Shown: positions 2,448 to 63,880, counted from the stretch's first letter. The stretch: 64,000 bases of DNA from Oscillospiraceae bacterium (GCA_963664585.2 CAXXEO010000015.1:6597-70596), one strand, 5' to 3'. A program made the numbers and translations. Notes: generated from the sequence alone by a model not told the origin.

Positions 2448-2554
2448 TATAGCCAATTAACTTAAAAACTGGCTATATATATAACGTCATTTTCTTCCCC
2501 CGCCTTCGGCGGGGGAAGAAATCACAAGCTTGTTTTCAAATTAATCAACTATAT
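2448..2554 (+). repeat. F1 repeat copy, orientation A
   Basis: TATAGCCAATTAACTTAAAAACTGGCTATA...TTCTTCCCCCGCCTTCGGCGGGGGAAGAA...ACAAGCTTGT...TTAATCAACTATA, in a divergent intergenic region. Confidence 0.9.
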
Positions 2555-2729
2555 CATAGCGAAATATAAAACATGTACAAGAGTGGTAAGTCCTTGTCAA
2601 TTGAGAAATGCTTTTTTCATTCGAAAGACAGTCAGACTTTTATTGAAAGGGATACTGCCTTGTTATATAATCAATTATGCGACAACATATTTGTATTTAA
2701 CGAAACCTAAAAGTGCAAAGGGGTCAATT

Positions 2730-3179
2730 ATGGAGCTTCACTACATACCAACATTCGCATCAAAAGAAGACATTGAAATCTGGATGGAGCTTGTCGAACT
2801 GGTACAGGACAACTTCCCCGGTTTAGTCATCGAGGATTATAAGAAAGCGTTGGAACAAAGCATCACACAGAAGATGGCGCTTCTTGTAAAAACAGAAGGT
2901 AAAGCAGTGGGTACGATGCTGTTTTCTTATCAAAACAATGAAATATGCTTTCTTGCGGTGCACCCCCAGTACAGACAAAACGGTATTGCGACTGCATTAG
3001 TAACCGAAATGCTAAAACAGCTGCCGGAAGAGGCAAAAATCACCGTAAGCACATTCCGGCAAGATGACCCAAAAGGGAAAGCAGCACGGGCATTTTACAC
3101 GAATCTGGGTTTTACACCGGGAGCGCTCATAGAAGAATTCGGGTATCACTGTCAACAATTTGTTTATACCCGAAAGTAA
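2730..3179 (+). CDS. GNAT family N-acetyltransferase
   Basis: ORF 2583..3179, trimmed to ATG 2730 behind an AAAGGGG RBS. Acetyl-CoA motif VHPQYRQNGIATALV. Confidence 0.8.
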   Translation: MELHYIPTFASKEDIEIWMELVELVQDNFPGLVIEDYKKALEQSITQKMALLVKTEGKAVGTMLFSYQNNEICFLAVHPQYRQNGIATALVTEMLKQLPEEAKITVSTFRQDDPKGKAARAFYTNLGFTPGALIEEFGYHCQQFVYTRK

Positions 3180-3252
3180 TTAAAAATAGAGCAATACAGG
3201 TCAAGAAAACCTTCCTCCCAGCATGGTATTCTTTTTAGCAGGAGGTGAGATT

Positions 3253-4155
3253 ATGGAAAGCTGGGAAAAGATAGTTGCCGTGCAGCATATGCAGGATTAT
3301 ATCGAAGAGCATATGACAGAAACGATCACCCTCTTAATGCTGGCAAGTGCCGCCGGGTATTCGCCTTGGCACAGTGCGAGGATCTTCAAAGAGATTACAG
3401 GCAAAGCACCATTTGAATACATCCGCACCTTGCGCTTGTCCCATGCGGCCGCTAAACTGCATGATGAGGATGTCAAGATTATTGATGTAGCATTTGACTT
3501 TGTCTTTGATTCGCACGAAGGCTTCACAAGAGCATTCTCGCGAGAGTTTGGCATGACTCCGAAATACTACAGCAAGAACACGCCGCTGTTAAAGCTCTTT
3601 CTTCCCAGCCATGCCCGTGATTATTACCTTACTCAGCAAAAAGGAGATGGCAAAATGGCAAAAGATCTTCATACTGTATTTGTTCAGGTGGTTGACCGTC
3701 CAGCAAGAAAGCTGATTTTAAAGCGCGGCATCAAAGCGGCACATTACTTTGAATTCTGTGAGGAAGTCGGCTGCGAAGTATGGGATGTCCTTTCTGGCAT
3801 TAAAGAAGCTCTATATGAGCCAATTGGCATGTGGTTGCCGGAAAGCTTAAAAAAGCCCGGCACGTCGGTGTACACACAGGGTGTAGAAGTAGCTGAAGAT
3901 TATTCTGGTAAAGTACCTGAGGGATATGAATTGGTTCATCTGGCACCGTGCAAGATGATGGTTTTTCAGGGCCCGCCCTATGACGATGAGAAATTCGAAG
4001 AGGCAATCAGCGAGCTTTGGGAAGTGATGAAAAGCTATAACCCCGTGCTTTATGGCTTTGAATGGGCCGATGAGGATGGACCTAGATTTCAACTTGCACC
4101 GATGGGATACCGGGGTTATATAGAAGCGAGACCGGTTCGTCAGTTGGGCAAATAA
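3253..4155 (+). CDS. AraC-family transcriptional regulator with GyrI-like effector-binding domain
   Basis: ORF 3223..4155. Start at ATG 3253 after GGAGGTGAG. AraC HTH (SPWHSARIFKEITGKAPFEYIRTLRL...GFTRAFSREFGMTP) followed by a ~150-aa C-terminal ligand-binding-type domain. Confidence 0.85.
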   Translation: MESWEKIVAVQHMQDYIEEHMTETITLLMLASAAGYSPWHSARIFKEITGKAPFEYIRTLRLSHAAAKLHDEDVKIIDVAFDFVFDSHEGFTRAFSREFGMTPKYYSKNTPLLKLFLPSHARDYYLTQQKGDGKMAKDLHTVFVQVVDRPARKLILKRGIKAAHYFEFCEEVGCEVWDVLSGIKEALYEPIGMWLPESLKKPGTSVYTQGVEVAEDYSGKVPEGYELVHLAPCKMMVFQGPPYDDEKFEEAISELWEVMKSYNPVLYGFEWADEDGPRFQLAPMGYRGYIEARPVRQLGK

Positions 4156-4258
4156 AGCCAATTAACTTAAAAACTGGGTATATATAAAACGTCATTTTCT
4201 TCCCCCGCCTTCGGCGGGGGAAGAAATCACAAGCTTGTTTTCAAATTAATCAACTATA
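4153..4258 (+). repeat. F1 repeat copy, orientation A
   Basis: Begins TAAAGCCAATTAAC (consensus TATAGCC...). Its first 3 nt are the TAA stop of the AraC gene. Confidence 0.9.
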
Positions 4259-4347
4259 AAAATTCAATTCTTTCTTTACGAACGTCTTCCGATTTATTTC
4301 GGGTGGCGTTTTCTTCGCTCATAAAGTTTATGATTTCAAATCCCCCC

Positions 4348-4376
4348 TTGACATTTTCTATCATTTACAATACTAT
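4348..4376 (+). promoter_or_regulatory. sigma-A-type promoter, TTGACA-17-TACTAT
   Basis: TTGACA at 4348-4353, a 17-nt spacer, TACTAT at 4371-4376, about 65 nt upstream of ATG 4441. Confidence 0.55.
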
Positions 4377-4381
4377 GTACT

Positions 4382-4418
4382 TAGTGGTTTAGTAATTTAG
4401 TAATTTAGTAATTTAATA
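4382..4418 (+). repeat. 8-bp tandem repeat TAGTAATT, about 4.5 units, in the predicted 5' leader
   Basis: TAGTGGTT TAGTAATT TAGTAATT TAGTAATT TAATA, read directly. It lies between the predicted promoter and the RBS of the 4441 gene. Confidence 0.85.
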
Positions 4419-4440
4419 AACATTTAGTGAGGGATCAAAT

Positions 4441-4920
4441 ATGAAAATACCAACTACTTTAAAACACAAGCCGGTGATTGTATCCGAAAACTATGAAAAT
4501 GTTGACGGAAGAAACGCTTATAAATCCGATGCAAAAGGACTTTCCCTTGGTCTGGCGCAATGGAATGATCGCGGGAAGGTGGATATTTCTGCAAAGGTAT
4601 GGCGATATACGGGGGAAAAATGGTCGCGTCAGTCAGAAGAATTGCCCCTGCACAGAGTTATTGATCTGGCCATACTGGTTTGCCGGGCAAAGCAGCATTT
4701 CAAAGAAGCATACCGTTTTCAAAAGCTATATGACACTGAAAAGACAACAATCGACCGCATCGGCTTACAGGGCGACGTCATGACGGTTTCGATTTGTACA
4801 GATAATCCGATGATTGATGAGGACATCAAGCTGTTTTCGTCAGTCCTCAGCACCGATGATGAATTAATTGGCGAGCGTCTCTTTACCCTTTCGCGCATAC
4901 TGAAAGAAATGGGGTATTGA
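4441..4920 (+). CDS. conserved hypothetical protein (possibly a DUF6530-type family; name not certain)
   Basis: 159-aa ORF with a GTGAGGG RBS. No catalytic motif recognised. Confidence 0.5.
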   Translation: MKIPTTLKHKPVIVSENYENVDGRNAYKSDAKGLSLGLAQWNDRGKVDISAKVWRYTGEKWSRQSEELPLHRVIDLAILVCRAKQHFKEAYRFQKLYDTEKTTIDRIGLQGDVMTVSICTDNPMIDEDIKLFSSVLSTDDELIGERLFTLSRILKEMGY

Positions 4921-4923
4921 CAG

Positions 4924-5268
4924 ATGGAAAAGCAAAGCAAAAAAGAGCTGCTGGCAGCTTATAAAGAGCGTGCTATTATAGGCGGCGTTTATGCGATAAA
5001 AAATACAGCAAACGGAAAAATCCTTTTACAGTCCGCCGCTGATTTATATGGTTGTAAAAACCGCTTTGAGTTTGCACAGAAAACGGGAGGCTGTGCTGCT
5101 TTACAATTGCATGAAGACTGGAAAATATTCGGTGCTGTCGCCTTTACATTTGAAATATTGGAGCAGCTGGAGAAAAAGGATACACAAACTTTGAAAGAGT
5201 TTAGCCAAGACATTGAAGTTTTAAAAGAAATTTGGCTTGAAAAGCTGGCTGCCATTGAGCTTTATTGA
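4924..5268 (+). CDS. small GIY-YIG-like domain protein
   Basis: 114 aa. GVYAIKNTANGKILLQS...KNRFEF...FEILE resembles the GIY-(10-11 aa)-YIG, Arg and Glu pattern. Starts 4 nt after the previous stop. Confidence 0.5.
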   Translation: MEKQSKKELLAAYKERAIIGGVYAIKNTANGKILLQSAADLYGCKNRFEFAQKTGGCAALQLHEDWKIFGAVAFTFEILEQLEKKDTQTLKEFSQDIEVLKEIWLEKLAAIELY

Positions 5269-5282
5269 CAGGAGGATTGACG

Positions 5283-5558
5283 ATGCGTTCGATTGCAACG
5301 TTTTTGGATGAAGCAGGAAAGATTAAGAAGCTCCCAGCAAAAAGAGAGCCCAGACGTGCTGTCTTAGAGTATCTTGCCACCAGGTTTTCCTGTGACAGGG
5401 ATTATACAGAAAAAGAAGTAAACGTAATCATTGACAGCTGGCACACCTTCGGCGATTATTTTGTACTGCGACGTGAACTGATCGAGCAGAAGTTCCTTTG
5501 CAGAACAAGAGATGGCTCACGATACTGGAAAGAGGAAGTTGCTGCTATAGCCAATTAA
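5283..5558 (+). CDS. DUF2087-like domain protein
   Basis: ORF 5265..5558, trimmed to ATG 5283 after AGGAGG. YTEKEVNVIIDSWHTFGDYFVLRRELIE resembles DUF2087. The last four codons (ATA GCC AAT TAA) are F1 repeat sequence. Confidence 0.55.
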   Translation: MRSIATFLDEAGKIKKLPAKREPRRAVLEYLATRFSCDRDYTEKEVNVIIDSWHTFGDYFVLRRELIEQKFLCRTRDGSRYWKEEVAAIAN

Positions 5559-5644
5559 CTTAAAAACTGGCTATATATAAAACGTCATTTTCTTCCCCCG
5601 CCTTCGGCGGTGGAAGAAATCACAAGCTTGTTTTCAAGTTAATC
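5546..5644 (+). repeat. F1 repeat copy, orientation A, split by IS30-family copy 1 (remaining 11 bp at 6698..6708)
   Basis: The F1 sequence runs to ...CAAGTTAATC, then the IS end GCTACATTG. AATCAACTATA resumes after the IS. Confidence 0.9.
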
Positions 5645-6697
5645 GCTACATTGTAAAATGAAATGCGACAGAAAAAAGATAGCCCAAGGCAGCCAAAACG
5701 TGTAGAATAGAGTTTGCAACAACAACATTCACACAAGGAGGCAGCCATGAGCCACCACCATTTTACAACATTCGAACGAGGAAAGATAGAGGAACTCCGT
5801 CAAATCGGATATACGACCCGGAAAATCGCATCACGTCTGGGATGTCACCACAGCAGTATCGCTAGAGAATTGAAACGTTTTTGCGGTGCCCGAGCGTATA
5901 ACGCAGAAGAAGCACAACTGGATTACCAGAAGAAACGGCACAACAGCAAACCTCAAGGGAAATGGAACGAGGAGTTGTGCGCAGCTGTGGCAGAAAAGCT
6001 GAAAGAGACCTGGTCGCCAGAACAAATATCACATACCGTTACTTCAAGCCAACTGAGCTTTAAAACCATATACAACTGGCTTTATGCCGGACGACTGAAC
6101 GGACTTACCGCAGATGTGCTGCGCCGTAATGGAAAAAAGAGAAGCTGTAAAAATCTTGCGCATTATGCTCGTGGTACTTCTATCCGCAAGAGACCCAAAG
6201 AGGTATATACCAGAGAAACATTTGGGCATTGGGAACTTGATACGGTGGTTTTCTCTAGGGGTTCCAGCGGTTGCTTGGCCACCTTTGTGGAATGAAAAAC
6301 AAGGTTCTATACAGCCGTTCCCATTCCTGATCGAACGGCAGCTTCCATGGAAGCTGCAATCAAGCACCTGCACACTTTATTGCCACAAGGCACATTCAAA
6401 ACAGCAACAACAGATCGTGGCGGTGAATTTGCCTGTTATGATGTAATCCAGAAAGATCTAGGCTTAACTCTTTATTTCGCTGATCCATATTGTCCGCATC
6501 AGAGAGGAAGCAATGAGTACGGTAACGGTTTGCTCAGAGAGTTCTTTCCGAAAGGTACTGTTCTGTCCACTGTTTCTCATCAAAACCTATCTTCTTCTCT
6601 TCTGCTTATAAACAACAGACCCCGAAAATGTCTTAATTGGAATACACCTTCCCAGCTCTTTCTACTCGAACTGTCGCATTTGGCTTGACAATGTAGC
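5645..6697 (+). mobile_element. IS30-family insertion sequence, copy 1 (1053 bp), transposase inactivated
   Basis: Inverted repeats GCTACATTGTAAAATGAAATGCGACAG and CTGTCGCATTTGGCTTGACAATGTAGC. AATC is duplicated on both flanks. Confidence 0.9.
5747..6688 (+). pseudogene. IS30-family transposase with a nonsense mutation
   Basis: TGA at 6293-6295 where copy 3 has CGA, splitting the ORF into 5714..6295 and 6347..6688. Confidence 0.85.
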
Positions 6698-6805
6698 AAT
6701 CAACTATAGTGCTGACGCTGATCATTCGGAGAATTGACTTAGCCTGATGCATTTTAAATCCCGCCGGTTTACCGCTATTTTGGAACGCCTTTCGACATAG
6801 AAACA

Positions 6806-6847
6806 CCCCCAAAGCTAAACAGTATATATACTGTTTAGCTTTGGGGG
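6806..6847 (-). terminator. long perfect hairpin downstream of the kinase gene
   Basis: CCCCCAAAGCTAAACAGTAT AT ATACTGTTTAGCTTTGGGGG, a ~20-bp stem. On the minus strand it is followed by TGTTTCT. Confidence 0.6.
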
Positions 6848-6860
6848 TACAGCAGATTTG

Positions 6861-8300
6861 CTAGTTATTTTGATGGTAGAATTCCAGATACCGCTGATAA
6901 CGGCGTTGGTATTTTTCCCGGTTTTCCGGATGAGGGGCAATGATAAACTCTTGCCCGTTATCGAATTCCTCCAGATGTGAGATTTCGCCCATGGCAAGCA
7001 TTCCCAAACCGGCGGCTCCTAACAAAGAAGCCTGCTCATTATCGGAGACTTTCATTTCCTTTTGAAAAATATCTGCCAGCATTTGCAGCCATACGGGAGA
7101 TCTTACAATGCCGCCCGACACCTTGATCGCCTTAGGGATCGCATTTTCTTTGATAAGAACCTCATAGCACTGGAACAAATTGAACAAAACGCCTTCCAGA
7201 ATGCTGCCGTAAAGGTCACCTACAGTATGGGTGTTTTTGAGTTCTTTAAATCCGCCTAAACGCTTATCATCCCAGCCGGGGCTTCTTTCACCAAAAAGAA
7301 ACGGCAGAAAGATCGGCAGATCGTGATCATCCCGGGTGATCATTTCGTCCAGCTGGCGCAGGGAATAAGCATTTGCCATCACGCGGCCCGCAAACCACTC
7401 AAGACAGTTCGTGCTTCCTGAGGTTGCGGCCCCTACCAACCACTTTCCGGGTGCAAAATAACACCAAAGGCTTGGGACATCGGACATATAAGGACGGTCA
7501 TAAGCAACACGCAAAGCACCGCTGGTTCCTACGGAAAGGGTCATGATCCCATTTTTTAAAGCACCGCTCCCCACCTGATTCAGGGCGCCATCCGGATGCG
7601 CAGAAAGAACGGGGATGTCTTCTCTCACGCCCAGAAGCTGTGCGTACTGCGCAAGAAGCGGCTGCGTATAGGTATGGTCAACGAGTTTAGGCAGATTGCT
7701 TTTTTGCGTTTCTGTTATTTCAAGAGCATTTTGGTCCCAGTCAAGGGTATGTATGTTTAAAAGACCGGTTCCCGATGCGTTTGAAATGGATTGTGCCACA
7801 TCCCCCGTCAATTTGGAAAAAATATAACTTCCCTGATCTATAATCATATCCCCGGGCAAAATCTGAAGGCCGCTTTTCTTCAGATGTATCAGCTTAAATA
7901 ATGGATACATTGCATGAACCATGCCGCCGGTACTGTGATAATGCCGTATCGCCCAGTCGGTATCCCTTCGAAGCTCTTCTGCCTCGGCATAGGCTCCGGT
8001 GTAGGCCCATGTAAACGCACGTGTTTTGGGAATGAGATTTTGATCCACTACAAGAAGGTTATGCCAAGTACACGAGATACTGATACAGTCAATCGGATTA
8101 TCGCATATAAGCTCCCGGCCCACCTTCAGGATATATTCGAACACCTGATCAGCATCCTGACTAACAACATCGCTGCAAGACTCATCATAAGGAATCGTCC
8201 TTGTTTTGACGGGGCCGCTTAAACTGTTATAGATCATCGCTTTCGCAGAAGAAGTACTGGCCTCCAATATGAGTATATTCAAACTTAAAATCACTCCCAT
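6861..8300 (-). CDS. FGGY-family carbohydrate kinase (gluconokinase-like)
   Basis: 479 aa. FGGY features include FLPFLFGERSPGWD and GGIVRSPVWLQMLADIF. The N-terminal phosphate-1 motif is diverged (LILEASTSSAKA). Confidence 0.7.
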   Translation of the reverse strand: MGVILSLNILILEASTSSAKAMIYNSLSGPVKTRTIPYDESCSDVVSQDADQVFEYILKVGRELICDNPIDCISISCTWHNLLVVDQNLIPKTRAFTWAYTGAYAEAEELRRDTDWAIRHYHSTGGMVHAMYPLFKLIHLKKSGLQILPGDMIIDQGSYIFSKLTGDVAQSISNASGTGLLNIHTLDWDQNALEITETQKSNLPKLVDHTYTQPLLAQYAQLLGVREDIPVLSAHPDGALNQVGSGALKNGIMTLSVGTSGALRVAYDRPYMSDVPSLWCYFAPGKWLVGAATSGSTNCLEWFAGRVMANAYSLRQLDEMITRDDHDLPIFLPFLFGERSPGWDDKRLGGFKELKNTHTVGDLYGSILEGVLFNLFQCYEVLIKENAIPKAIKVSGGIVRSPVWLQMLADIFQKEMKVSDNEQASLLGAAGLGMLAMGEISHLEEFDNGQEFIIAPHPENREKYQRRYQRYLEFYHQNN

Positions 8301-8452
8301 ATCAATCTATACGATTAGTTCGTTTTTATTGAATTTTTCATCTTAAAGCCTTTTAAAAGCAAAGAATCATCCGATTTAAACAGCATAACCTGAAGCCATT
8401 TATCAAACAAAGTAAAGGTTGGCCTTTAAAGATATTGCTTCTATAGTTGATT

Positions 8453-9504
8453 GCTACATTGTAAAATGAAATGCGACAGAAAAAAGATAGCCCAAGGCAG
8501 CCAAAACGTGTAGAATAGAGTTTGCAACAACAACATTCACACAAGGAGGCAGCCATGAGCCACCACCATTTTACAACATTCGAACGAGGAAAGATAGAGG
8601 AACTCCGTCAAATCGGATATACGACCCGGAAAATCGCATCACGTCTGGGATGTCACACAGCAGTATCGCTAGAGAATTGAAACGTTTTTACGGTGCCCGA
8701 GCGTATAACGCAGAAGAAGCACAACTGGATTACCAGAAGAAACGGCACAACAGCAAACCTCAAGGGAAATGGAACGAGGAGTTGTGCGCAGTTGTGGCAG
8801 AAAAGCTGAAAGAGACCTGGTCGCCAGAACAAATATCACATACCGTTACTTCAAGCCAACTGAGCTTTAAAACAATATACAACTGGCTTTATGCCGGACG
8901 ACTGAACGGACTCACCGCAGATGTGCTGCGCCGTAATGGAAAAAAGAGAAGCTGTAAAAATCTTGCGCATTATGCTCGTGGTACTTCTATCCGCAAGAGA
9001 CCGAAAGAGGTATATACCAGAGAAACATTTGGGCATTGGGAACTTGATACGGTGGTTTCCTCTAGGGGTTCCAGTAGTTGCTTGGCCACCTTTGTGGAAC
9101 GAAAAACAAGGTTCTATACAGCCGTTCCCATTCCTGATCGAACGGCAGCTTCCATGGAAGCTGCAATCAAGCACCTGCACACTTTATTGCCACAAGGCAC
9201 ATTCAAAACAGCAACAACAGATCGTGGCGGTGAATTTGCCTGTTATGATGTAATCCAGAAAGATCTAGGCTTAACTCTTTATTTCGCTGATCCATATTGT
9301 CCGCGTCAGAGAGGAAGCAATGAGTACGGTAACGGTTTGCTCAGAGAGTTCTTTCCGAAAGGTACTGTTCTGTCAACTGTTTCTCATCAAAACCTGTCTT
9401 CTTCTCTTCTGCTTATAAACAATAGACCCCGAAAATGTCTTAATTGGAATACACCTTCCCAGCTCTTTCTACTCGAACTGTCGCATTTGGCTTGACAATG
9501 TAGC
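8453..9504 (+). mobile_element. IS30-family insertion sequence, copy 2 (1052 bp), transposase frameshifted
   Basis: Same inverted repeats as copy 1. Flanked by TATAGTTGATT and GATTAACTTG, so it sits inside an orientation-B F1 copy with GATT duplicated. Confidence 0.9.
8555..9495 (+). pseudogene. IS30-family transposase with a 1-nt deletion
   Basis: GATGTCACACAGC near 8656 versus GATGTCACCACAGC in copies 1 and 3. Only the 281-aa ORF 8650..9495 remains open. Confidence 0.85.
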
Positions 9505-9603
9505 GATTAACTTGAAAACAAGCTTGTGATTTCTTCCCCCGCCGAAGGCGGGGGAAGAAAATGACGTTTTAACTATAGCCAGTTTTTAAGTTAATTGGCT
9601 ATA
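9505..9603 (-). repeat. F1 repeat copy, orientation B, split by IS copy 2 (other 11 bp at 8442..8452)
   Basis: GATTAACTTGAAAACAAGCTTGTGATTTCTTCCCCCGCCGAAGGCGGGGGAAGAAAATGACG...TTAATTGGCTATA. The loop reads GAA on the top strand. Confidence 0.9.
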
Positions 9604-9674
9604 TATATATCTATTCTCTTGGGTTCATCTGCTTTTCCTTAAGCTTTTTATCCGCGCTGACGGCATATGAGAGG

Positions 9675-10955: not shown

Positions 10956-11070
10956 TTTCTTTTCTCCTATTCATTGGGGCTTATACTGTTGATACACATG
11001 TTTTCCATGTCGTCGGGAAATGGAAGCGTCTAAACTGCTGACATTACTTTCATATCAGCCCGTTTTATCA

Positions 11071-12474: not shown

Positions 12475-12588
12475 CAGTGTACCCGTCCTTTTTACAGTAT
12501 TGATTTGAAATTCTGCATTGCACAGTTGTCTGTTCCCTTTTGATGGTAAGTCATAACCGTCCGGCAATGGCGGACGGAAGTAAATGAA

Positions 12589-15154: not shown

Positions 15155-15280
15155 AATCAGACCTCCTTTAATTATATCCCATACCAAACTGCGATTAAAC
15201 GATAATTCCAATGATGATTTCTCCGCTAACAGCGGCAAGGTCACAAACGAAAATTCAGTGTCATTTAAACTAAATTAAAT

Positions 15281-15384
15281 GCCTTGTAAAATCTAAATCC
15301 TTATGGCAATGGGTTAAATGTCTTTATATATTCCCCCGCCTTCGGCGGGGCAATATATAAGTTTAAGATGTTACATTGTACTAG
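15281..15384 (-). repeat. F2 repeat copy with GC hairpin core, orientation Y
   Basis: GCCTTGTAAAATCTAAATCCTTATGGCAATGGGTTAAATG...TATATTCCCCCGCCTTCGGCGGGGCAATATA...GATGTTACATTGTACTAG. Confidence 0.85.
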
Positions 15385-15396
15385 TATGGCAGCCTC

Positions 15397-17250: not shown

Positions 17251-17356
17251 TATAGCCAATTAACTTGAAAATTGGCTATAGATAAAACGTCATTTTCTTC
17301 CCCCGCCTTCGGCGGGGGAAGAAATCACAAGCTTGTTTTCAAATGAATCAACTATA
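17251..17356 (+). repeat. F1 repeat copy, orientation A
   Basis: Variant with an 11-bp first stem, TATAGCCAATT AACTTGAAA AATTGGCTATA. Core loop TTC. Confidence 0.9.
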
Positions 17357-18210: not shown

Positions 18211-19383
18211 TTAATGATGAAACAATCTGACTCTGGTGAATGCCATCGCAATGTTATATTTGTCACAGGTTCCAATCACATGATCATCGCGAATTGACCC
18301 GCCTGTTTGTGCGATGAATTCGACACCGCTTCTATGCGCACGTTCAATATTATCACCGAAAGGGAAGAAAGCGTCGGACCCCAATGATACTCCCATAAAT
18401 GTATCCAACCATCTTCTTTTTTCTTCATAGGTAAATGGGTCGGGTCTTTTTGTAAAAATTTCTTCCCAACAGCCATCCGAAAGAATTTGTGCGCTATCAA
18501 CGGAGAGGTAACCATCAATCGCATTGTCCCGTTCTGGACGTTGGATGCTTTCTTTAAAAGGGAGGTTTAGCACCTTGGGATTTTGGCGCAAATACCATTG
18601 ATCCGATTTATCCCCTGCCAGGCGAGTGCAATGAATTCTTGATTGCTGTCCGGCTCCAATCCCTATTGCCTGACTGTCTTTTACATAACATACAGAATTT
18701 GATTGTGTATATTTCAGGGTGAGTAATGCGATGATGAGATCAGTTTTAGCGTCACTGGGAATCTCTTTGTTCAGGGTTGGAATTTCTTGCAGTAATTCTT
18801 CTGAAATCTTCACCTCATTTGTTCCCTGTTCAAATGTAATTCCAAAAACGTCCTTTTGTTCAACCAAATTCGGTTTGTAATTTTCGTCGATCTGGATAAT
18901 CGTGTAAAGCCCCTTGCGCTTCTTTTTTAAAATGTCGAGTGCTTTTTCTTCATACTCGGGAGCGACAATGCCATCCGAAACTTCCCTGGCAATGAGCGTT
19001 GCCGTGGACACGTCGCAAATATCGGATAAAGCGATAAAGTCTCCATATGAAGACATCCTGTCCGCACCTCTAGCTCTTGCGTAAGCCGATGCCTGCGCGG
19101 ATAGCTCCAAATCATCCACGAAATATATTTTTCTTAGCGTTTTACTCAAAGGCTTACCTATCGCTGCCCCCGCTGGGCTGACATGCTTAAAAGACGCAGC
19201 CGCAGTAAAACCCGTTGCCTGTTTTAGTTCCTTTACCAATTGCCAACCGTTAAAGGCATCTAAAAGATTGATATAGCCTGGATTTCCATTCAGAATCTTT
19301 ATCGGCACCTCGCCGGTTTTCATAAATATTCTCGCTGGCTTTTGATTGGGATTGCATCCATATTTTAGTTCCATTTCAGTCAT
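18211..19383 (-). CDS. AICAR transformylase-type protein (PurH formyltransferase domain only)
   Basis: 390 aa. The MELKYGCNPNQKPARIF start and GIGAGQQSRIHCTRLA are typical of the AICARFT domain. No IMP cyclohydrolase/MGS domain. Confidence 0.75.
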   Translation of the reverse strand: MTEMELKYGCNPNQKPARIFMKTGEVPIKILNGNPGYINLLDAFNGWQLVKELKQATGFTAAASFKHVSPAGAAIGKPLSKTLRKIYFVDDLELSAQASAYARARGADRMSSYGDFIALSDICDVSTATLIAREVSDGIVAPEYEEKALDILKKKRKGLYTIIQIDENYKPNLVEQKDVFGITFEQGTNEVKISEELLQEIPTLNKEIPSDAKTDLIIALLTLKYTQSNSVCYVKDSQAIGIGAGQQSRIHCTRLAGDKSDQWYLRQNPKVLNLPFKESIQRPERDNAIDGYLSVDSAQILSDGCWEEIFTKRPDPFTYEEKRRWLDTFMGVSLGSDAFFPFGDNIERAHRSGVEFIAQTGGSIRDDHVIGTCDKYNIAMAFTRVRLFHH

Positions 19384-19413: not shown

Positions 19414-19459
19414 TAAAAAAGCCAACTATCCGGGTTGTTTGCCCAGACGGTCGGCTTTT
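19414..19459 (-). terminator. intrinsic terminator candidate
   Basis: Minus strand: AAAAGCCGAC...GTTGGCTTTTTTATTG, downstream of the flavin reductase-like gene. Confidence 0.45.
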
Positions 19460-19773
19460 ATGTCATACTCCCTTGTGGTTATCCACATCCGTCAGTAATA
19501 TGACTCTTTATTTTAGTTTAAACTCAAAATGACTGATTGTCAATGTTAAGCTATACGAAAAGTCACTGCCCTTATCCAAGTTCCATTTAACACGAATCCC
19601 AATTTCAACAGCAATGATCCACCTCTGTTTCCCCCGCCTCCGGTGGCGAAACAGAGGGAATAATTAAGTGTGATTTAGAGAAGATTCAGTATGAACGATG
19701 TAGGAAATAGGGTGATGATAAAAGGGATGTACTTATCGATCTTCACAGCCTTGTTAATGGATTTTTGTTATTT

Positions 19774-22896: not shown

Positions 22897-23002
22897 TATA
22901 GTTGATTAACTTGAAAACAAGCTTGTGATTTCTTCCCCCGCCTTTGGCGGGGGAAGAAAATGACGTTTTATCTATAGCCAATTTTCAAGTTAATTGGCTA
23001 TA
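22897..23002 (-). repeat. F1 repeat copy, orientation B
   Basis: TATAGTTGATTAACTTGAAAACAAGCTTGTGATTTCTTCCCCCGCCTTTGGCGGGGG... The loop reads TTT on the top strand despite B orientation. Confidence 0.9.
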
Positions 23003-29614: not shown

Positions 29615-29700
29615 CTAGTACATTGCAAAATCTTAAACTTGTATATTCCCCCGCCTTCGGCGGGGGAATATACAAGAACACTTAACCCATTGCCATAAGT
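29615..29700 (+). repeat. F2 repeat copy with GC hairpin core, orientation X, right end diverged
   Basis: CTAGTACATTGCAAAATCTTAAACTTGTATATTCCCCCGCCTTCGGCGGGGGAATATACAAGAACACTTAACCCATTGCCATAAG. Confidence 0.85.
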
Positions 29701-31180: not shown

Positions 31181-31286
31181 TATAGTTGATTAACTTGAAA
31201 ACAAGCTTGTGATTTCTTCCCCAGCCTTCGGCGGGGGAAGAAAATGACGTTTTATATATAGCCAGTTTTTAAGTTAATTGGCTATA
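31181..31286 (-). repeat. F1 repeat copy, orientation B
   Basis: Core CCCCAGCCTTCGGCGGGGG (loop TTC on the top strand). Its end abuts the TAA stop of the 31287 gene. Confidence 0.9.
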
Positions 31287-31973
31287 TTAGCAGCTGCACC
31301 GAGGTTCAATCACAGTTTTCGAAGAATATGGAAATGTAAACTCGACAATCCCGCTGGAATAAGGTGCAATATCATATTGTTGGAAATAGACAATCATCCC
31401 TTCTGGCGTAAGGTAAAATTGTTTTGGGTTAAATGTATTAGCTACATTCTTTTGGTAGTCCTCGAAATAGATATTACTTCCTCCTTCAATTTGTGAAGCA
31501 ATTTGCTTAATAATTGATGTCATCATGTATTCTTTATAATTTACACATGGCAGAAACATTTGCTTGAGCAGCATACATAGGCCAGTTTGCAAATTCCATG
31601 TGTCTGAGCATCTTGTTGTGTTGCCATGCGCTCCGCCCGTATACTCATACCGGTCAGAATACAAGCTGACTGCGCAGTTTTGATGATACGTTATTTCAAA
31701 TGTTAAAACTGCCTCAAAGGTCCTGATTGGAAACCCATTTGCCACCGAATCTTGATACAATTGGACAGACATTTCAAATAACTTCCGCCTACAATATTTT
31801 TGATATTCCAGCGCCCTTGTTTTATAAAAATAATTCATCTTGTTAACTGCATTGCAAAATTTTAAAGACCTAAACTGAGGGTACTCAATTTTATAGCTTA
31901 GCAACAATTCTTGTTTAAAATACATCTCCTCTTGTATTGTCATTCTAATAAACTGCAGATTATTAATTATCAT
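31287..31973 (-). CDS. DUF3298/DUF4163-type domain protein
   Basis: 228 aa. YEYTGGAHGNT motif. Confidence 0.6.
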   Translation of the reverse strand: MIINNLQFIRMTIQEEMYFKQELLLSYKIEYPQFRSLKFCNAVNKMNYFYKTRALEYQKYCRRKLFEMSVQLYQDSVANGFPIRTFEAVLTFEITYHQNCAVSLYSDRYEYTGGAHGNTTRCSDTWNLQTGLCMLLKQMFLPCVNYKEYMMTSIIKQIASQIEGGSNIYFEDYQKNVANTFNPKQFYLTPEGMIVYFQQYDIAPYSSGIVEFTFPYSSKTVIEPRCSC

Positions 31974-33212: not shown

Positions 33213-33255
33213 CTAATCCTTTTCCCTTCATTCAAGTAATGGCACTGTCTTCTAG

Positions 33256-33319
33256 TGCTTTTAAAATCTAAATCTTTTATGGCAATGGGTTAAATATAAA
33301 AGTTGAAAATGTTGCATTG
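33256..33319 (-). repeat. F2 repeat copy without the GC hairpin, orientation Y, fused to an F1 copy
   Basis: GTGCTTTTAAAATCTAAATCTTTTATGGCAATGGGTTAAATATAAAAGTTGAAAATGTTGCATTGTA, joined directly to TAGCCAATT. Confidence 0.75.
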
Positions 33320-33423
33320 TATAGCCAATTAACTTAAAAACTGGCTATATATAACGTCATTTTCTTCCCCCGCTTTCGGCGGGGGAAGAAATCACAAGCT
33401 TGTTTTCAAGTTAATCAACTATA
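33320..33423 (+). repeat. F1 repeat copy, orientation A
   Basis: Core variant CCCCCGCTTTCGGCGGGGG. Confidence 0.9.
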
Positions 33424-33821
33424 CTAGTATTAATTCAATAAAATGATTTATTCAATTAGACCGATGATTCGCGCAGAAGATGAAACATCATAAACATTTT
33501 CTCATAGCTTTTTTAGTTATTTCAACCGTTATTAGGTGCGAATTTTGTCATTTTGTGTTACACTGATTCTGTAAGAAAAAATATTTGAAGAGCTATACTA
33601 TATCGCATTAAAAAAATATTTAAAAATGTATTTAGCGTTTGGAAATTGGAGGTGCCAAATGTAATCTCAGAAATAATCAGAAAAACCATGTCATCTATGG
33701 ATCAACAACCGGTGAGCAATGCAGTCTTACAGTTTAATTACTTTTTAACCCATGTGAATGGGTATTGGTTTCAAAGTATAATTATTTTTTCAACTATATT
33801 AATAATAAAGGGGATAATAAA

Positions 33822-33959
33822 ATGGGTGATAAAAGTATAAAAAATAATCAGGTTAAGAAAAAGAAGAAAGCAGATATCAGTACTTCATCTTCCCCGGCAT
33901 CATTCAAGCCGGTTGTAACACAGCCTGAATTAATCAAAAAGAAGAAAAAACCTCTCTAG
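33822..33959 (+). CDS. possible 45-aa Lys-rich small protein
   Basis: MGDKSIKNNQVKKKKKADISTSSSPASFKPVVTQPELIKKKKKPL behind AAAGGGGA. Its stop lies inside the F2 terminus. Coding status is uncertain. Confidence 0.25.
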   Translation: MGDKSIKNNQVKKKKKADISTSSSPASFKPVVTQPELIKKKKKPL

Positions 33960-34046
33960 TACAATGCAACATCTTAAATTTTCCCCCGCCTTCGGCGGGG
34001 GAAAATACAAAAACATTTAACCCATTGTCATAAAATACAAAGCCCT
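33956..34046 (+). repeat. F2 repeat copy with GC hairpin core, orientation X, internal deletion near the right end
   Basis: CTAGTACAATGCAACATCTTAAATTTTCCCCCGCCTTCGGCGGGGGAAAATACAAAAACATTTAACCCATTGTCATAAAATACAAAGCC. Confidence 0.85.
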
Positions 34047-36216: not shown

Positions 36217-36250
36217 TCTGGGATAGACATAAGCCTCTAAGCCAATGCTT

Positions 36251-36354
36251 AGAGTTGATTAACTTGAAAACAAGCTTGTGATTTCTTCCCCCACCTTCGG
36301 CGGGGGAAGAAAATGACGTTTTATTTATACCGGTTTTTAAGATAATTGGCTATA
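36251..36354 (-). repeat. F1 repeat copy, orientation B
   Basis: The terminus is AGAGTTGATT (not TATAG). Core CCCCCACCTTCGGCGGGGG, loop TTC on the top strand. Confidence 0.88.
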
Positions 36355-37533: not shown

Positions 37534-37575
37534 TATAGTTGATTAACTTGAAAACAAGCTTGTTTTGCTTCTTCG
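37534..37575 (-). repeat. solo F1 terminal fragment (B-side TIR only)
   Basis: TATAGTTGATTAACTTGAAAACAAGCTTGT, then divergence. No GC core. Confidence 0.75.
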
Positions 37576-40597: not shown

Positions 40598-40658
40598 CGC
40601 AATGTAACATTGTATATTCCCCCGCCTTCGGCAGGGGAATATACAAAAACGTTTAAGC
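40598..40658 (+). repeat. partial F2 repeat with GC hairpin core
   Basis: GCGCAATGTAACATTGTATATTCCCCCGCCTTCGGCAGGGGAATATACAAAAACGTTTAAGC. It lacks the TTAACCCATTGCC arm. Confidence 0.7.
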
Positions 40659-40672
40659 AAAAAATTAAAAGA

Positions 40673-51259: not shown

Positions 51260-51365
51260 TATAGTTGATTAACTTGAAAACAAGCTTGCGATTTCTTCCC
51301 CCGCCGAAGGCGGGGGAAGAAAATGACGTTATATATATAGCCAGTTTTTAAGTTAATTGGCTATA
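51260..51365 (-). repeat. F1 repeat copy, orientation B
   Basis: Near-consensus. The loop reads GAA on the top strand. Confidence 0.9.
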
Positions 51366-53241: not shown

Positions 53242-53249
53242 ACATAGCA

Positions 53250-54957: not shown

Positions 54958-54991
54958 GATTTCCTTGCGTTCGCCATAAAATCATCGTTAG

Positions 54992-55023
54992 GCAGAGCCG
55001 CCAGCTCTTACTGGAGGCTCTGC
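54992..55023 (+). other. stem-loop just after the binding-protein gene, no T-run
   Basis: GCAGAGCC-N16-GGCTCTGC. Confidence 0.5.
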
Positions 55024-55075
55024 TCTAACATGTAAGACTATTTCAATGTTTAAATGCTTCTAAGGAGTGAACCAA

Positions 55076-56980: not shown

Positions 56981-56995
56981 AATAGGGGTATGCCA

Positions 56996-58934: not shown

Positions 58935-58951
58935 TTAAAGGAGTGGAACAC

Positions 58952-59683: not shown

Positions 59684-59694
59684 AGGAGTTGCCG

Positions 59695-60423: not shown

Positions 60424-60456
60424 AGACACGATCAGAAAACGAAATATTAATAACAT

Positions 60457-60495
60457 AAAACAATCCTCTGCCGTGATGGCAGAGGATTGTTTTTA
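60457..60495 (+). terminator. intrinsic terminator of the second ABC/C26 operon
   Basis: AAAACAATCCTCTGCC-GTGA-GGCAGAGGATTGTTTTT. The F1 terminus starts inside the T-run. Confidence 0.85.
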
Positions 60496-60504
60496 TAGTT
60501 GATT

Positions 60505-61557
60505 GCTACATTGTAAAATGAAATGCGACAGAAAAAAGATAGCCCAAGGCAGCCAAAACGTGTAGAATAGAGTTTGCAACAACAACATTCACACAAGGAG
60601 GCAGCCATGAGCCACCACCATTTTACAACATTCGAACGAGGAAAGATAGAGGAACTCCGTCAAATCGGATATACGACCCGGAAAATCGCATCACGTCTGG
60701 GATGTCACCACAGCAGTATTGCTAGAGAATTGAAACGTTTTTACGGTGCCCGAGCGTATAACGCAGAAGAAGCACAACTGGATTACCAGAAGAAACGGCA
60801 CAACAGCAAACCTCAAGGGAAATGGAACGAGGAGTTGTGCGCAGCTGTGGCAGAAAAGCTGAAAGAGACCTGGTCGCCAGAACAAATATCACATACCGTT
60901 ACTTCAAGCCAACTGAGCTTTAAAACAATATACAACTGGCTTTATGCCGGACGACTGAACGGACTCACCGCAGATGTGCTGCGCCGTAATGGAAAAAAGA
61001 GAAGCTGTAAAAATCTTGCGCATTATGCTCGTGGTACTTCTATCCACAAGAGACCCAAAGAGGTATATACCAGAGAAACATTTGGGCATTGGGAACTTGA
61101 TACGGTGGTTTTCTCTAGGGGTTCCAGCGGTTGCTTGGCCACCTTTGTGGAACGAAAAACAAGGTTCTATACAGCCGTTCCCATTCCTGATCGAACGGCA
61201 GCTTCCATGGAAGCTGCAATCAAGCACCTGCACACTTTATTGCCACAAGGCACATTCAAAACAGCAACAACAGATCGTGGCGGTGAATTTGCCTGTTATG
61301 ATGTAATCCAGAAAGATCTAGGCTTAACTCTTTATTTCGCTGATCCATATTGTCCGCATCAGAGAGGAAGCAATGAGTACGGTAACGGTTTGCTCAGAGA
61401 GTTCTTTCCGAAAGGTACTGTTCTGTCCACTGTTTCTCATCAAAACCTGTCTTCTTCTCTTCTGCTTATAAACAATAGACCCCGAAAATGTCTTAATTGG
61501 AATACACCTTCCCAGCTCTTTCTACTCGAACTGTCGCATTTGGCTTGACAATGTAGC
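60505..61557 (+). mobile_element. IS30-family insertion sequence, copy 3 (1053 bp), intact
   Basis: Same 27-bp inverted repeats. Flanked by TATAGTTGATT and GATTCACTTG (GATT duplicated), inside an orientation-B F1 copy. Confidence 0.92.
60607..61548 (+). CDS. IS30-family transposase (313 aa from ATG behind AAGGAGG)
   Basis: N-terminal HTH (FERGKIEELRQIGYTTRKIASRLGCHHSSIAREL). DDE region WELDTV ... TDRGGEF ... PHQRGSNEYGNGLLREFFPKG. Confidence 0.92.
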   Translation: MSHHHFTTFERGKIEELRQIGYTTRKIASRLGCHHSSIARELKRFYGARAYNAEEAQLDYQKKRHNSKPQGKWNEELCAAVAEKLKETWSPEQISHTVTSSQLSFKTIYNWLYAGRLNGLTADVLRRNGKKRSCKNLAHYARGTSIHKRPKEVYTRETFGHWELDTVVFSRGSSGCLATFVERKTRFYTAVPIPDRTAASMEAAIKHLHTLLPQGTFKTATTDRGGEFACYDVIQKDLGLTLYFADPYCPHQRGSNEYGNGLLREFFPKGTVLSTVSHQNLSSSLLLINNRPRKCLNWNTPSQLFLLELSHLA

Positions 61558-61656
61558 GATTCACTTGAAAACAAGCTTGTATTTTCTTCCCTCGCCTTCG
61601 GCGGGGGAAGAAAATGACGTTTTATATATAGCCAGTTTTTAAGTGAATTGGCTATA
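61558..61656 (-). repeat. F1 repeat copy, orientation B, split by IS copy 3 (other 11 bp at 60494..60504)
   Basis: GATTCACTTGAAAACAAGCTTGTATTTTCTTCCCTCGCCTTCGGCGGGGGAAGAAAATGACG...GAATTGGCTATA. Loop TTC on the top strand. Confidence 0.9.
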
Positions 61657-61674
61657 TGTTCTGAATCAATTATT

Positions 61675-62613
61675 CTATTTTGACTTTTTAGCAACATAAG
61701 AAGTTAACATAGGAACACATATTGCCGTAACCACAACTGCCGCTGCAATTTGTGCCGTAGCCACGGCAACATACGGTTGCATCGTCTTGTCCAGTAAAGC
61801 GACTGCTGCCGGGGTTGCGACTGCATTTCCAGCAGCACTCGAAACTGCGGCGGCCGCATAGCCTGGTCTTCTATTAATCGATTTATCTACTAATATGAGT
61901 GGAATACCCCCTATTGCCATGACTAAAATGCCTAGGAGAACACCACTATAACCGGCTTTCATCACATTTGTAAAGTTTATGCCGGCACCTAAAGCAAATG
62001 CAAAGCAAGGGATCATAATATCAATTCCAGGCTTAAAGAGTATTCTTATATCGTCATCCAGATTTCCTAGAATGATTCCAACTATCAATGGACCTATAGC
62101 GCCCAATAAACTTATGACAGGAATATCAGCCATACCTGATGCTCCTAGCGCGAGCAAAGTTAAAAAAGGACCGTCTTTAATGTTAAGTACGCTTAAGGCG
62201 CCAATATCTATAGGATCACCATACTCCGAAACCAGGGCGGCATATAAACCGCCATTACCGCTTGTCATAGCGCTGACTAGGGCTAGCACAGAAATCCCGA
62301 AAATCCCTTCCATCCCAAATCGTTTAGCAACCAGCAGTGCAAACCCAGCCCCGATTAAAAACTTAGCAATTACTAATACGGCTCCCCTTTTCAATGCTTC
62401 AGGAGCCTCCTTAAATTTTAACTGGCTTCCGACAAACATTAAAAATACGCCTACTAAAGCAGCTGAGCCTTTGCTTGAAAATACTGCTGTTGTAAAGGAT
62501 CCTATTTCAAGAAGTGCAGGGCAAAAGGTATTGAATGCAGCACCTATTAACAAAGGAACAACCATCAATCCCCCAGGTATTTTCTTTACCCGCGATAAAA
62601 TTTTCAAATTCAT
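61675..62613 (-). CDS. kdgT: 2-keto-3-deoxygluconate permease family transporter
   Basis: KKIPGGLMVVPLLIGAAFNTFCP N-terminus. 312 aa, polytopic. Confidence 0.8.
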   Translation of the reverse strand: MNLKILSRVKKIPGGLMVVPLLIGAAFNTFCPALLEIGSFTTAVFSSKGSAALVGVFLMFVGSQLKFKEAPEALKRGAVLVIAKFLIGAGFALLVAKRFGMEGIFGISVLALVSAMTSGNGGLYAALVSEYGDPIDIGALSVLNIKDGPFLTLLALGASGMADIPVISLLGAIGPLIVGIILGNLDDDIRILFKPGIDIMIPCFAFALGAGINFTNVMKAGYSGVLLGILVMAIGGIPLILVDKSINRRPGYAAAAVSSAAGNAVATPAAVALLDKTMQPYVAVATAQIAAAVVVTAICVPMLTSYVAKKSK

Positions 62614-62670
62614 TGTTTCCTTTCTCAGCCCCTTTTTGTTAGTTTATCATCTTTTCGCTCACATTGAAAC

Positions 62671-62776
62671 TATAGTTGATTAACTTGAAAACAAGCTTAT
62701 GATTTCTTCCCCCGCCTTCGGCGGGGGAAGAAAATGGAGTTTTATATATAGCCAGTTTTTAAGTTAATTGGCTATA
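62671..62776 (-). repeat. F1 repeat copy, orientation B, fused to an F2 copy
   Basis: Consensus core with TTC on the top strand. It ends GGCTATA, immediately followed by GTACAATGCAAC. Confidence 0.9.
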
Positions 62777-62878
62777 GTACAATGCAACATCATAAACTTG
62801 TAGTTTTTCGCGCCTTCGGCGGGGGAAACTACAAGAACATTTAACCCATTGCCATAAAAGATTTTGATTTTACAAGCC
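62777..62878 (+). repeat. F2 repeat copy with GC hairpin core, orientation X
   Basis: GTACAATGCAACATCATAAACTTGTAGTTTTTCGCGCCTTCGGCGGGGGAAACTACAAGAACATTTAACCCATTGCCATAAAAGATTTTGATTTTACAAGCC. Confidence 0.85.
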
Positions 62879-63078
62879 ACTAGAATTATGATTGGAGCCA
62901 GATCAAGAAAATCATTTATATCAGGATATCGATACCTATTTTGGACGAGTGAAATCATTTCTCAATATGCTTTGTGTTAGAATTACTAAGCATTTCTATA
63001 AATTTATATCTATACTTTATGGTCGCATGAATAAAAAAACGTTATAATAAAAATAAGAATAAAGAGGAGGTACATAAA

Positions 63079-63690
63079 GTGTCTATTGATGTTTCATTGT
63101 TTTTAGAAAACCTAGAAAAAAAGGGTTTTAAAACAAAGCACGTAAAAACCGCCAAAGATGCATGTAGTTTTCTTCTTTCTGAGATCGGCATCAATTCTTC
63201 AGTCGGAATCGGAGGATCAATGACGATTGAAGAACTTGGCATTGCGGATGCTCTTGCCGAACGGGGTAATCCTGTTTTTTGGCACTGGAAAGTTCCTTCG
63301 GAAAAAGCAAAGGAAACCAGAGAAAAAGCAAATTCATCCGATGTCTATCTCTGTTCCACGAACGCAGTTTCCATGGGCGGAACCTTTTACAATATTGACG
63401 GAACCGGAAACCGAGTTGCAGCCATTTCTTATGGAGGACAGCCTCTTTTTATCGTGATGAGCACAAGCAAAATTGCCCAAACGGAAAATGATGCAATGAA
63501 AAGGGTGAAGGATATAGCCTGTACACTCAATGCAAGGCGACTAAAACTCAATACACCCTGTGCAATAACAGGAAAATGTATTGATTGCTCTTCACCACAG
63601 CGTTTTTGCAATGTTACCTGCATTCTTGAAAGGCCAACTGGGAACCGAGAAGTACATATTGTGGTTGTAGATGAGAAACTTGGGTATTAG
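63079..63690 (+). CDS. LUD-domain (lactate utilisation protein-like, DUF162) protein
   Basis: GTG start behind AAAGAGGAGG. 203 aa. VGIGGSMTIEELGI and a C-terminal Cys cluster CAITGKCIDCSSPQRFC. Confidence 0.65.
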   Translation: MSIDVSLFLENLEKKGFKTKHVKTAKDACSFLLSEIGINSSVGIGGSMTIEELGIADALAERGNPVFWHWKVPSEKAKETREKANSSDVYLCSTNAVSMGGTFYNIDGTGNRVAAISYGGQPLFIVMSTSKIAQTENDAMKRVKDIACTLNARRLKLNTPCAITGKCIDCSSPQRFCNVTCILERPTGNREVHIVVVDEKLGY

Positions 63691-63711
63691 CCCGCATAAC
63701 ACGTATTCTTT

Positions 63712-63743
63712 AAAAACCCGTCATCAAGTATGGCGGGTTTTTT
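63712..63743 (+). terminator. intrinsic terminator of the LUD-domain gene
   Basis: AAAAACCCGTCA-N7-TGGCGGGTTTTTT. Confidence 0.75.
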
Positions 63744-63774
63744 GTATCCTGCCATCCGACTTTCATTGCATATA

Positions 63775-63880
63775 TATAGCCAATTAACTTAAAAACTGGC
63801 TATATATAAAACGTCATTTTCTTCCCCCGCCTTCGGCGGGGGAAGAAATCACAAGCTTGTTTTCAAGTTAATCAACTATA
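63775..63880 (+). repeat. F1 repeat copy, orientation A (consensus-like, 106 bp)
   Basis: The full consensus can be read directly here. Confidence 0.92.

Follow-up and report, generated by a model that had tools for sequence, protein, structure and literature searches.

F1, a TA-flanked miniature transposon family with Correia-class termini in an Oscillospiraceae genome, and an IS30-family element that enters its right end

Correia repeats, quoted as TATAGTGGATTAACAAAAACCGGTACGG and variants with the 26-bp repeat TATAGTGGATTAA(C/A)..., are 104-108 or 153-157 bp long, have 26-bp terminal inverted repeats (TIRs), duplicate a TA and encode no transposase; the mechanism that mobilises them is described as undetermined. 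Effects on transcripts are documented for Correia and ERIC elements alike. Among insertion sequences (ISs) that enter intergenic repeats is ISPpu9, which is found in repetitive extragenic palindromic (REP) sequences. Here we describe F1, a repeat of 104-106 bp found as 14 copies and one solo end in a 64,000-nucleotide stretch of DNA from an Oscillospiraceae bacterium (GCA_963664585.2, CAXXEO010000015.1:6597-70596; hereafter the window, positions being counted from its first letter). F1 is a MITE (miniature inverted-repeat transposable element), that is, a non-autonomous transposon: it is small, bounded by TIRs, non-coding, present in many near-identical copies and associated with a TA duplication. 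It forms a new MITE family with Correia-class termini, a known kind of element; MITEs are common, and one more family from an anaerobe that is not in culture would by itself surprise nobody. Our overall reading, to which we assign a probability of roughly 85%, is that F1 is a TA-targeting, non-autonomous DNA transposon that is moved in trans, has multiplied recently and is tolerated nowhere but between genes, and that its right TIR is the dedicated landing site of a resident IS30-family element.

A sensitive blastn search of the window with the consensus of the initial annotation recovered the 14 copies and the solo end at the 15 sites and coordinates given there, with the same division into six in one orientation and nine in the other (solo end counted). 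Eleven copies are uninterrupted, with lengths of 104-106 bp, and three (5546+, 9505- and 61558-) match consensus positions 1-99 only, their last 7 nt lying about 1.06 kb off. Identity to the consensus is 91.5-100%, and copies 36457 and 63775 are the consensus itself. The 31-nt hairpin core has 14 matches with no more than one mismatch in the window, and none in 100 dinucleotide-preserving shuffles. The density is about one copy per 4-5 kb, and F1 makes up about 2.4% of the window. Four further copies are located on L006, an ENA contig of 19.3 kb, and the census thus covers 83 kb (the 64-kb window plus L006). The 26-nt TIRs match each other at 20 of 26 positions, a recount agreeing with the earlier figure, and are kept in all 18 copies of the window and L006, each of which is bounded by TA. 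Stops are present in all six frames, so that F1 has no coding capacity. The copies of the window are as follows, F2 being a second repeat family described below.

2448-2553, plus strand: F1 copy of 106 bp, loop TTC, between divergent genes (blastn)
4153-4258, plus strand: F1 copy with left tip TAAAG (blastn)
5546-6708, plus strand: F1 copy split by an IS30-family IS; left part 5546-5644, right part with duplicated AATC 6698-6708
8442-9603, minus strand: F1 copy split by an IS at the same site; tip TATAGTTGATT at 8442-8452, remainder 9505-9603, GATT duplicated
17251-17356, plus strand: F1 copy of the subfamily G17/T22/G31 (common to 22897), loop TTC
22897-23002, minus strand: F1 copy of the 17251 subfamily, loop inverted (AAA in element orientation)
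31181-31286, minus strand: F1 copy with inverted loop GAA, abutting the stop of the open reading frame (ORF) 31287-31973 (minus strand)
33320-33423, plus strand: F1 copy of 104 bp within the GTAC TA of an F2 end, GCATTG-TA-[F1]-TA-CTAG
36250-36354, minus strand: most diverged F1 copy (91.5%), inverted loop
36457-36562, minus strand: F1 copy identical to the consensus
37534-37571, minus strand: solo right-end TIR remnant of 38 nt (TATAGTTGATTAACTTGAAAACAAGCTTGT..)
51260-51365, minus strand: F1 copy, loop TTC in element orientation
60494-61656, minus strand: F1 copy split by an IS at the same site, inverted loop; tip 60494-60504, remainder 61558-61656
62671-62776, minus strand: F1 copy within the CTAG TA of an F2 end, AAC-TA-[F1]-TA-GTACAATGC, inverted loop
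63775-63880, plus strand: F1 copy identical to the consensus

As the initial annotation had noted, each of the 15 sites lies between genes or touches a stop codon; with a non-coding share of 16.6% in the window, the probability of this is about 2e-12. Stop codons are abutted by two copies (4153 and 31286). Copy 4153 starts with TAAAG rather than TATAG, its TAA (4153-4155) being the stop of the AraC-family regulator ORF 3223-4155, and this F1 copy therefore supplies the stop codon of the regulator gene. The orientation of F1 relative to neighbouring genes is mixed and without bias, and divergent, tandem and convergent spacers are all occupied. The restriction to intergenic sites together with the lack of orientation bias fits a selfish element filtered by selection, and the consensus-identical copies together with the density point to a recent burst.

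The target duplication was read from the F2 family of intergenic repeats, which are about 100-120 bp long with CTAG at the start and the end (consensus CTAGTACAATGCAACATCTTAAAC[TTGTATATTCCCCCGCCTTCGGCGGGGGAATATACAA]GAACATTTAACCCATTGCCATAAAAGATTT.GATTTTACAAG.CACTAG). Seven F2 copies were listed.

approx. 62775-62890, plus strand: F2 copy hosting the 62671 F1 copy, palindrome core with compensated outer stem
approx. 33243-33427, minus strand: F2 copy without hairpin, split by the 33320 F1 copy (F2 part also listed as 33243-33321)
approx. 15262-15386, minus strand: F2 copy
approx. 29615-29698, plus strand: F2 copy
approx. 33956-34033, plus strand: F2 copy
approx. 40598-40669: partial F2 copy
63927-63990, plus strand: hairpin-less F2 copy

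In four copies (29615, 33956, 15386 as reverse complement, and 63927) the F2 end is empty and reads CTAGTACAATGCAAC. The same end is filled at 62671, as C-TA-[F1]-TA-GTACAATGC, and at 33320, as CTAG-TA-[F1]-TA-CAATGC, the two F1 copies occupying two different TA dinucleotides. Because paralogous F2 ends exist both empty and filled, we conclude that insertion of F1 duplicates a 2-bp TA. F2 itself is found with and without a palindrome, and F1 favours it as a neighbour or target; the F2 copy at 63927 resembles a deletion between TTAA(A/C)C repeats.

Searches outside the window found the exact F1 family only on L006, where its four copies have unique flanks. The TIR class to which its ends belong, TATAG-YYR-ATTAAC-TT-R-AAAA, is broader and bounds elements of 67 to about 165 bp with unrelated cores and TA ends, in L001 (an Oscillospiraceae metagenome-assembled genome, MAG), L015 (an IMG/VR contig) and the metagenome contigs L007, L009 and L028. 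L001 was the single locus among the matches listed for a gapped TIR pattern in the genome collection. Tandem MITEs of this class share a single TA in L001 (7734-7839 and approx. 7838-7981) and in L015 (4243-4345 and 4344-4410), and the 67-bp element of L015 is a deletion derivative, between ACC repeats, of a palindrome-bearing MITE of the L028 type. F1 was not found in the JGI metagenome contigs, where the 21-mer of the right TIR gave three chance matches only. Plasmid and phage records gave no F1 match and, in a BLAST search with the 30-nt TIR, chance matches only. Two TIR-pattern scans of viral contigs returned, except for L015, only chance matches within phage genes. Rfam gave no F1 match at gathering thresholds or at permissive E-values, and neither the F1 TIR strings nor 'Correia-like' were matched in the full-text literature. 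F1 is not confined to the window, as the L006 copies show. The initial annotation had recognised no named family; this statement agrees with the Rfam, plasmid and phage, JGI and literature searches but has to be qualified, as the termini are clearly Correia-like.

No F1 copy is present in 21 kb of L002, a relative whose FGGY kinase is 64% identical to that of the window. Besides itself, this kinase has no relative above 68% identity, and its named relatives, 42-48% identical, are proteins of Christensenellales, Saccharofermentanales and Oscillospiraceae MAGs. Judged from sequence, the host is a poorly sampled Clostridia-like organism.

The F1 copies 5546, 8442/9505 and 60494/61558 are each cut at the identical nucleotide by an IS of 1052-1053 bp. 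The initial annotation had listed these split copies correctly and had missed the IS30 insertions which account for the three apparent split repeats, as well as the nature of TA as target duplication and, as described below, five inverted loops and a core common to F2. The transposase has the domains HTH_38 (9e-12) and rve (4e-8), on the basis of which the interrupting element is assigned to the IS30 family; its homologues are also named IS30 family by the source records.

5645-6697, plus strand: IS30-family IS, 1053 bp, CGA>TGA nonsense at ~6293 (ORFs 5714-6295 and 6347-6688)
8453-9504, plus strand: IS30-family IS, 1052 bp, 1-nt deletion near 8655 causing a frameshift
60505-61557, plus strand: IS30-family IS, 1053 bp, intact 313-aa transposase gene (ATG 60607, stop 61548)

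The terminal inverted repeats (IRs) of the IS, GCTACATTGTAAAATGAAATGCGACAG, are 26 nt long. In each case the break in the right TIR of F1 falls between ...GTTAATC and AACTATA and has AATC on either side of it, a 4-bp duplication. Relative to F1, the IS lies one way at 5546 and the opposite way at 8442 and 60494. Identity among the IS copies is 98.6-99.2%, and their host F1 copies differ by up to ~8%; since the hosts diverge far more than the ISs, the insertions were independent and not one copied composite. Only the copy at 60505-61557 has an intact transposase gene, the other two in the window being pseudogenes. A fourth insertion at the same junction, with a transposase 97% identical, is located on L006. 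The 90% protein cluster of the transposase has 36 distinct members, the longest of their contigs measuring 478 kb, from which the IS is considered abundant in the source organism.

Short metagenome contigs encode homologues of this transposase, with protein identities of 68-79%, whose flanks belong to the same TIR class and are cut at the same position; fixed-position entry into the TIR was seen on at least 9 independent contigs. In L009 the MITE is complete, with ~165 bp, TATAGTTGATTAACTCC...GAAGTTAATC[IS]AATCAACTATA; the flanks in L007, L008 and L010 read ...CAAGCTAATC|IS|GATTAGCTTGAAAA and IS|GATTAACTTCGG; the junction in L028 is TATAGTTAATT|IS; and L012 and L013 have TIR-like IS flanks. 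In L011 the right flank, GATTGGCTATA, is in frame with a fragment of an IS3-family transposase gene, so that what the IS recognised there would seem to be a sequence resembling a TIR and not a MITE. None of the distant IS30 homologues (at most 60% identity, and a truncated copy at 70%) was found in a MITE TIR. Taken from these flanks, fixed-site insertion is a property of this whole clade within the IS30 family and holds for MITEs whose cores are unrelated. The terminal sequence TATAGYYRATT/AAC seems to be what is recognised, because the inner TIR of L009 has no TTGAAAA likeness and the IS is still found at the same site. This clade may have evolved to recognise exactly a terminus of the TATAG-NNN-ATTAAC class as its insertion site. 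In the literature searched we found no description of an IS30 clade landing at one nucleotide of a MITE TIR, and nothing to the effect that Correia repeats are a target of IS1655 or of other IS30 elements.

This association raises the alternative that F1 is itself an IS30-derived MITE or is handled by IS30-type transposases, entry beside AACTTGAAAAC being IR-targeting of a pseudo-IR. IS30-family elements are said, from the work of Olasz and Kiss, to make 2-3-bp duplications and to perform IR-targeting; in the at least 9 contigs counted above, the IS30 clade enters the TIR at a fixed position, exactly the duplicated 4 bp lie between the donor IR and the inner TIR, and the IS IR ACATTGTAAAAT has a weak by-eye likeness to the inner TIR AACTTGAAAAC. 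However, the IRs GCTACATTGTAAAATGAAATGCGACAG do not match the F1 termini, the duplication made by the IS is 4 bp and not TA, and in L009 the IS is at the same site beside an inner TIR without TTGAAAA likeness. We regard this alternative, in either form, as very unlikely.

The core of F1 contains the GC palindrome that the initial annotation had described as a perfect 14-bp stem with a 3-nt loop. This description holds for 9 of the 14 window copies, and each of the other five has one stem mismatch. A 23-bp core, TTCCCCCGCCTTCGGCGGGGGAA, is identical in F1 and F2, and in the MITE of L028 its 8-bp core recurs between outer arms of another sequence. The outer stems differ by context yet are fully complementary, 11 of 18 pairs being changed on both sides; compared across families, 87.7% of cells are paired versus 78.3% in shuffles (0/500). 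This cross-family pairing shows palindromy, not descent with compensation. Within F2, copy 62807 differs from its relatives at two compensated positions.

Of the 14 window copies of F1, five have the 3-nt loop inverted (5 of 18 with L006, where none is inverted), and inversion is recurrent, since one inverted copy has a non-inverted sister in the same subfamily. On the plus strand, 16 of the 19 window hairpins have TTC or TTT as their loop. Inverted loops are confined to minus-oriented elements (Fisher P = 0.03 for F1 and 0.003 for F1 plus F2, from small numbers), and the pattern stays the same across the region in which GC skew and gene orientation shift; the inversions may be strand-biased. 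C-GAA-G is a very stable DNA triloop. The F1 palindrome, common to an unrelated repeat and with loops that invert, offers a compact natural case for palindrome dynamics. Further perfect palindromes with 18-bp stems, a CCCCGCC/GGCGGGG-type apex and a 3-nt loop were observed at L006:14747-14787 and L028:3717-3757, both intergenic and outside any recognised repeat, and this style of long-palindrome hairpin may be common in these organisms.

As RNA, F1 is predicted to fold into one long hairpin on either strand, of -40.9 and -52.5 kcal/mol (z = -8.4 and -11.4). The strand of -52.5 kcal/mol has 22 contiguous pairs, because four of the TIR mismatches are G-U compatible. This G-U asymmetry of the TIR stem was considered as a signal and rejected, as by our estimate it would arise by chance in about 1 of 8 cases. 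As single-stranded DNA, three separate hairpins are predicted. Such very stable folds, at strictly intergenic sites of which some are directly 3' of stop codons, could be those of a host regulatory module (a terminator, an attenuator or an mRNA-stabilising hairpin) that was duplicated and is not a selfish transposon, and the documented transcript effects of Correia and ERIC would favour this. However, no T-run (U-run in the RNA) follows the GC hairpin in either orientation and a terminator scan made no call, so that F1 is not a canonical terminator, as the initial annotation had also held. Furthermore, F1 is present in divergent promoter regions and in both orientations relative to transcription, and the TIRs, the TA duplication and the nesting in F2 are features of a transposon. 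A regulatory module is for these reasons decidedly improbable, and any regulatory effect of F1 would be a by-product.

The palindrome could also be the functional unit in its own right, spread as single-stranded hairpin DNA by a Y1 (RAYT/IS200-like) transposase in the manner of REP or REPIN sequences. It is consistent with this that the 23-bp palindrome is present in the two otherwise unrelated repeats F1 and F2 and its 8-bp core in the L028 MITE, that the perfect Watson-Crick stems have different complementary outer parts and loops that invert, and that a Y1_Tnp gene (L006:11867-12325, minus strand) lies ~900 bp from the IS30-interrupted F1 copy of L006. This gene, however, belongs to an ordinary IS200-like unit with its own hairpins and no flanking GC palindrome, and no isolated copy of the palindrome was found outside F1 and F2 in the window. 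The sharp-edged repeated unit is the whole 106-bp TIR element with its TA duplication, which is not a Y1 product. Of the initial designation as MITE/REP-like, the MITE part is sustained by the TIRs, the TA duplication and the stops in six frames, and the REP-like part is not supported as a mechanism, no RAYT association having been found; we consider spread as a REP-like hairpin very improbable. That the repeats are an assembly or local-duplication artefact, as the probable origin of the window from a MAG might suggest, can practically be dismissed, as each copy has unique flanks, the copies show scattered substitutions and subfamilies, and others belong to a different ENA assembly record, on an independent contig.

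What is directly established, namely the anatomy, the TA duplication at paralogous sites, the dispersal to a second contig and the site specificity of the IS30-family element, can be arranged into a mechanism as follows. A transposase encoded elsewhere in the genome would bind the 26-bp TIRs (conserved TAG-YYR-ATTAAC-TT-R-AAAA) and insert the 102-bp body into a TA, duplicating it. Of the insertions only the intergenic ones have survived, as expected of a selfish element filtered by selection. A resident IS30-family IS then enters the right TIR between GATT and AAC with a 4-bp duplication. Co-transcribed F1 RNA could fold into the long hairpin, and Correia-like effects on transcripts, and thereby on host genes, would be possible; RNase III processing or promoter effects are conceivable. 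Strict TA targeting with a 2-bp duplication is a hallmark of DDE enzymes of the IS630/Tc1-mariner type, and the TA duplication, as the only basis for such an assignment, suggests an IS630/Tc1-like transposase for F1.

Several points weigh against this account. The comparison of empty and filled sites is one between paralogous F2 copies of the window. No transposase gene bounded by F1 TIRs was found in the window, L006 or any fetched locus; in addition, the window has no unpaired TIRs that might mark an autonomous partner, the genes beside the solo TIR at 37534 are ferredoxin-like with no transposase among them, and the examined sequences contain no IS630-like gene. The IS630-type assignment has no basis other than the TA duplication, and IS30-family enzymes also make 2-3-bp duplications. 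MITEs do not as a rule require a perfect GC palindrome of such length, and any F1 copy number beyond the 83 kb is an extrapolation.

Other features of the window were observed. A ZMP/ZTP riboswitch (Rfam RF01750, 56.3 bits) is located at 19434-19509 on the minus strand, upstream of the ORF 18211-19383 (minus strand), and a degenerate GC hairpin lies just upstream of it at ~19620-19660. Downstream of the FGGY kinase gene, at 6803-6850, is a perfect palindrome with a 20-bp stem (ACCCCCAAAGCTAAACAGTATATATACTGTTTAGCTTTGGGGGT), probably a bidirectional terminator between convergent units. At ~32-44 kb the prevailing orientation of the genes turns from minus to plus and the GC skew goes from negative through about zero to positive; no replication genes were seen, and the change may be only a local operon arrangement.

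Of the known systems, Correia is the nearest to F1 in its termini. The right end of F1, TATAGTTGATTAAC, matches TATAGTGGATTAAC at 13 of the 14 outermost nt, for which the chance probability is about 3e-7 per comparison; the F1 TIRs are identical to Correia at 11-13 of these nt and diverge from position 15 onward, and other members of the TIR class match at 9-13 of these positions. The TIR start TATAG-NNN-ATTAAC is common to both, with no likeness beyond ~20 nt of the TIR. F1 is also like Correia in its 26-bp TIRs, TA duplication, length (the 104-108 bp short class), lack of coding capacity, high intergenic copy number and a transcript foldable into a long TIR stem, and a mobilising transposase has been identified for neither. 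In contrast, the Correia core, with an IHF site in the long form, is replaced in F1 by the perfect 14-bp GC palindrome; the host of Correia is betaproteobacterial, whereas that of F1 is Bacillota/Clostridia-like; and it is for Correia only that activity as a promoter, cleavage by RNase III and binding of IHF are established. Since the cores are unrelated, F1 is, by this comparison, not a Correia element in the strict sense. Tentatively, and with more doubt than confidence, F1 and the elements of L001, L007, L009, L015 and L028 may be proposed as the Clostridial counterpart of Correia, within a cross-phylum TATAG-NNN-ATTAAC superfamily with TA duplication. If this is true, one transposase family would serve both Correia and F1-type MITEs, and finding the F1 enzyme would answer what mobilises Correia. 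The consensus-identical copies suggest current activity, in which case the source genome should still encode the enzyme; F1, as an apparently active Correia-like relative in another phylum, is thus a concrete place to look for it.

By description rather than by sequence, the closest Firmicute analogue of F1 would be RUP of Streptococcus pneumoniae (107 bp), likewise a Firmicute MITE with a TA duplication and with near-identical copies, which point to recent activity. Like F1, RUP inserts into other repeats or ISs, and nested BOX/RUP/SPRITE arrangements are found in the literature. RUP has a candidate partner with matching TIRs, IS630-Spn1, whereas F1 has none so far.

The IS30 family typically has IRs of ~26 bp, a length of ~1.05 kb and a sequence-specific choice of target. 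The F1-interrupting IS resembles members such as IS30 and IS1655 in its HTH_38 and rve domains, IRs and length, and differs in its apparent duplication of 4 bp (AATC) instead of 2-3 bp and in having a foreign TIR as target. IS1397 and ISKpn1 (IS3 family) reportedly insert at a fixed position of REP/BIME sequences. These and ISPpu9/ISPpu10 likewise use one fixed site in an abundant intergenic repeat, a safe landing site; they are IS3- and IS110-family elements in REP, whereas the F1 case is an IS30-family element in a MITE TIR, with a specificity that, unlike theirs, is common to a clade down to 68% protein identity. A habit known from ISs of the IS3 and IS110 families, which enter REP, is thereby extended to the IS30 family and to MITE ends.

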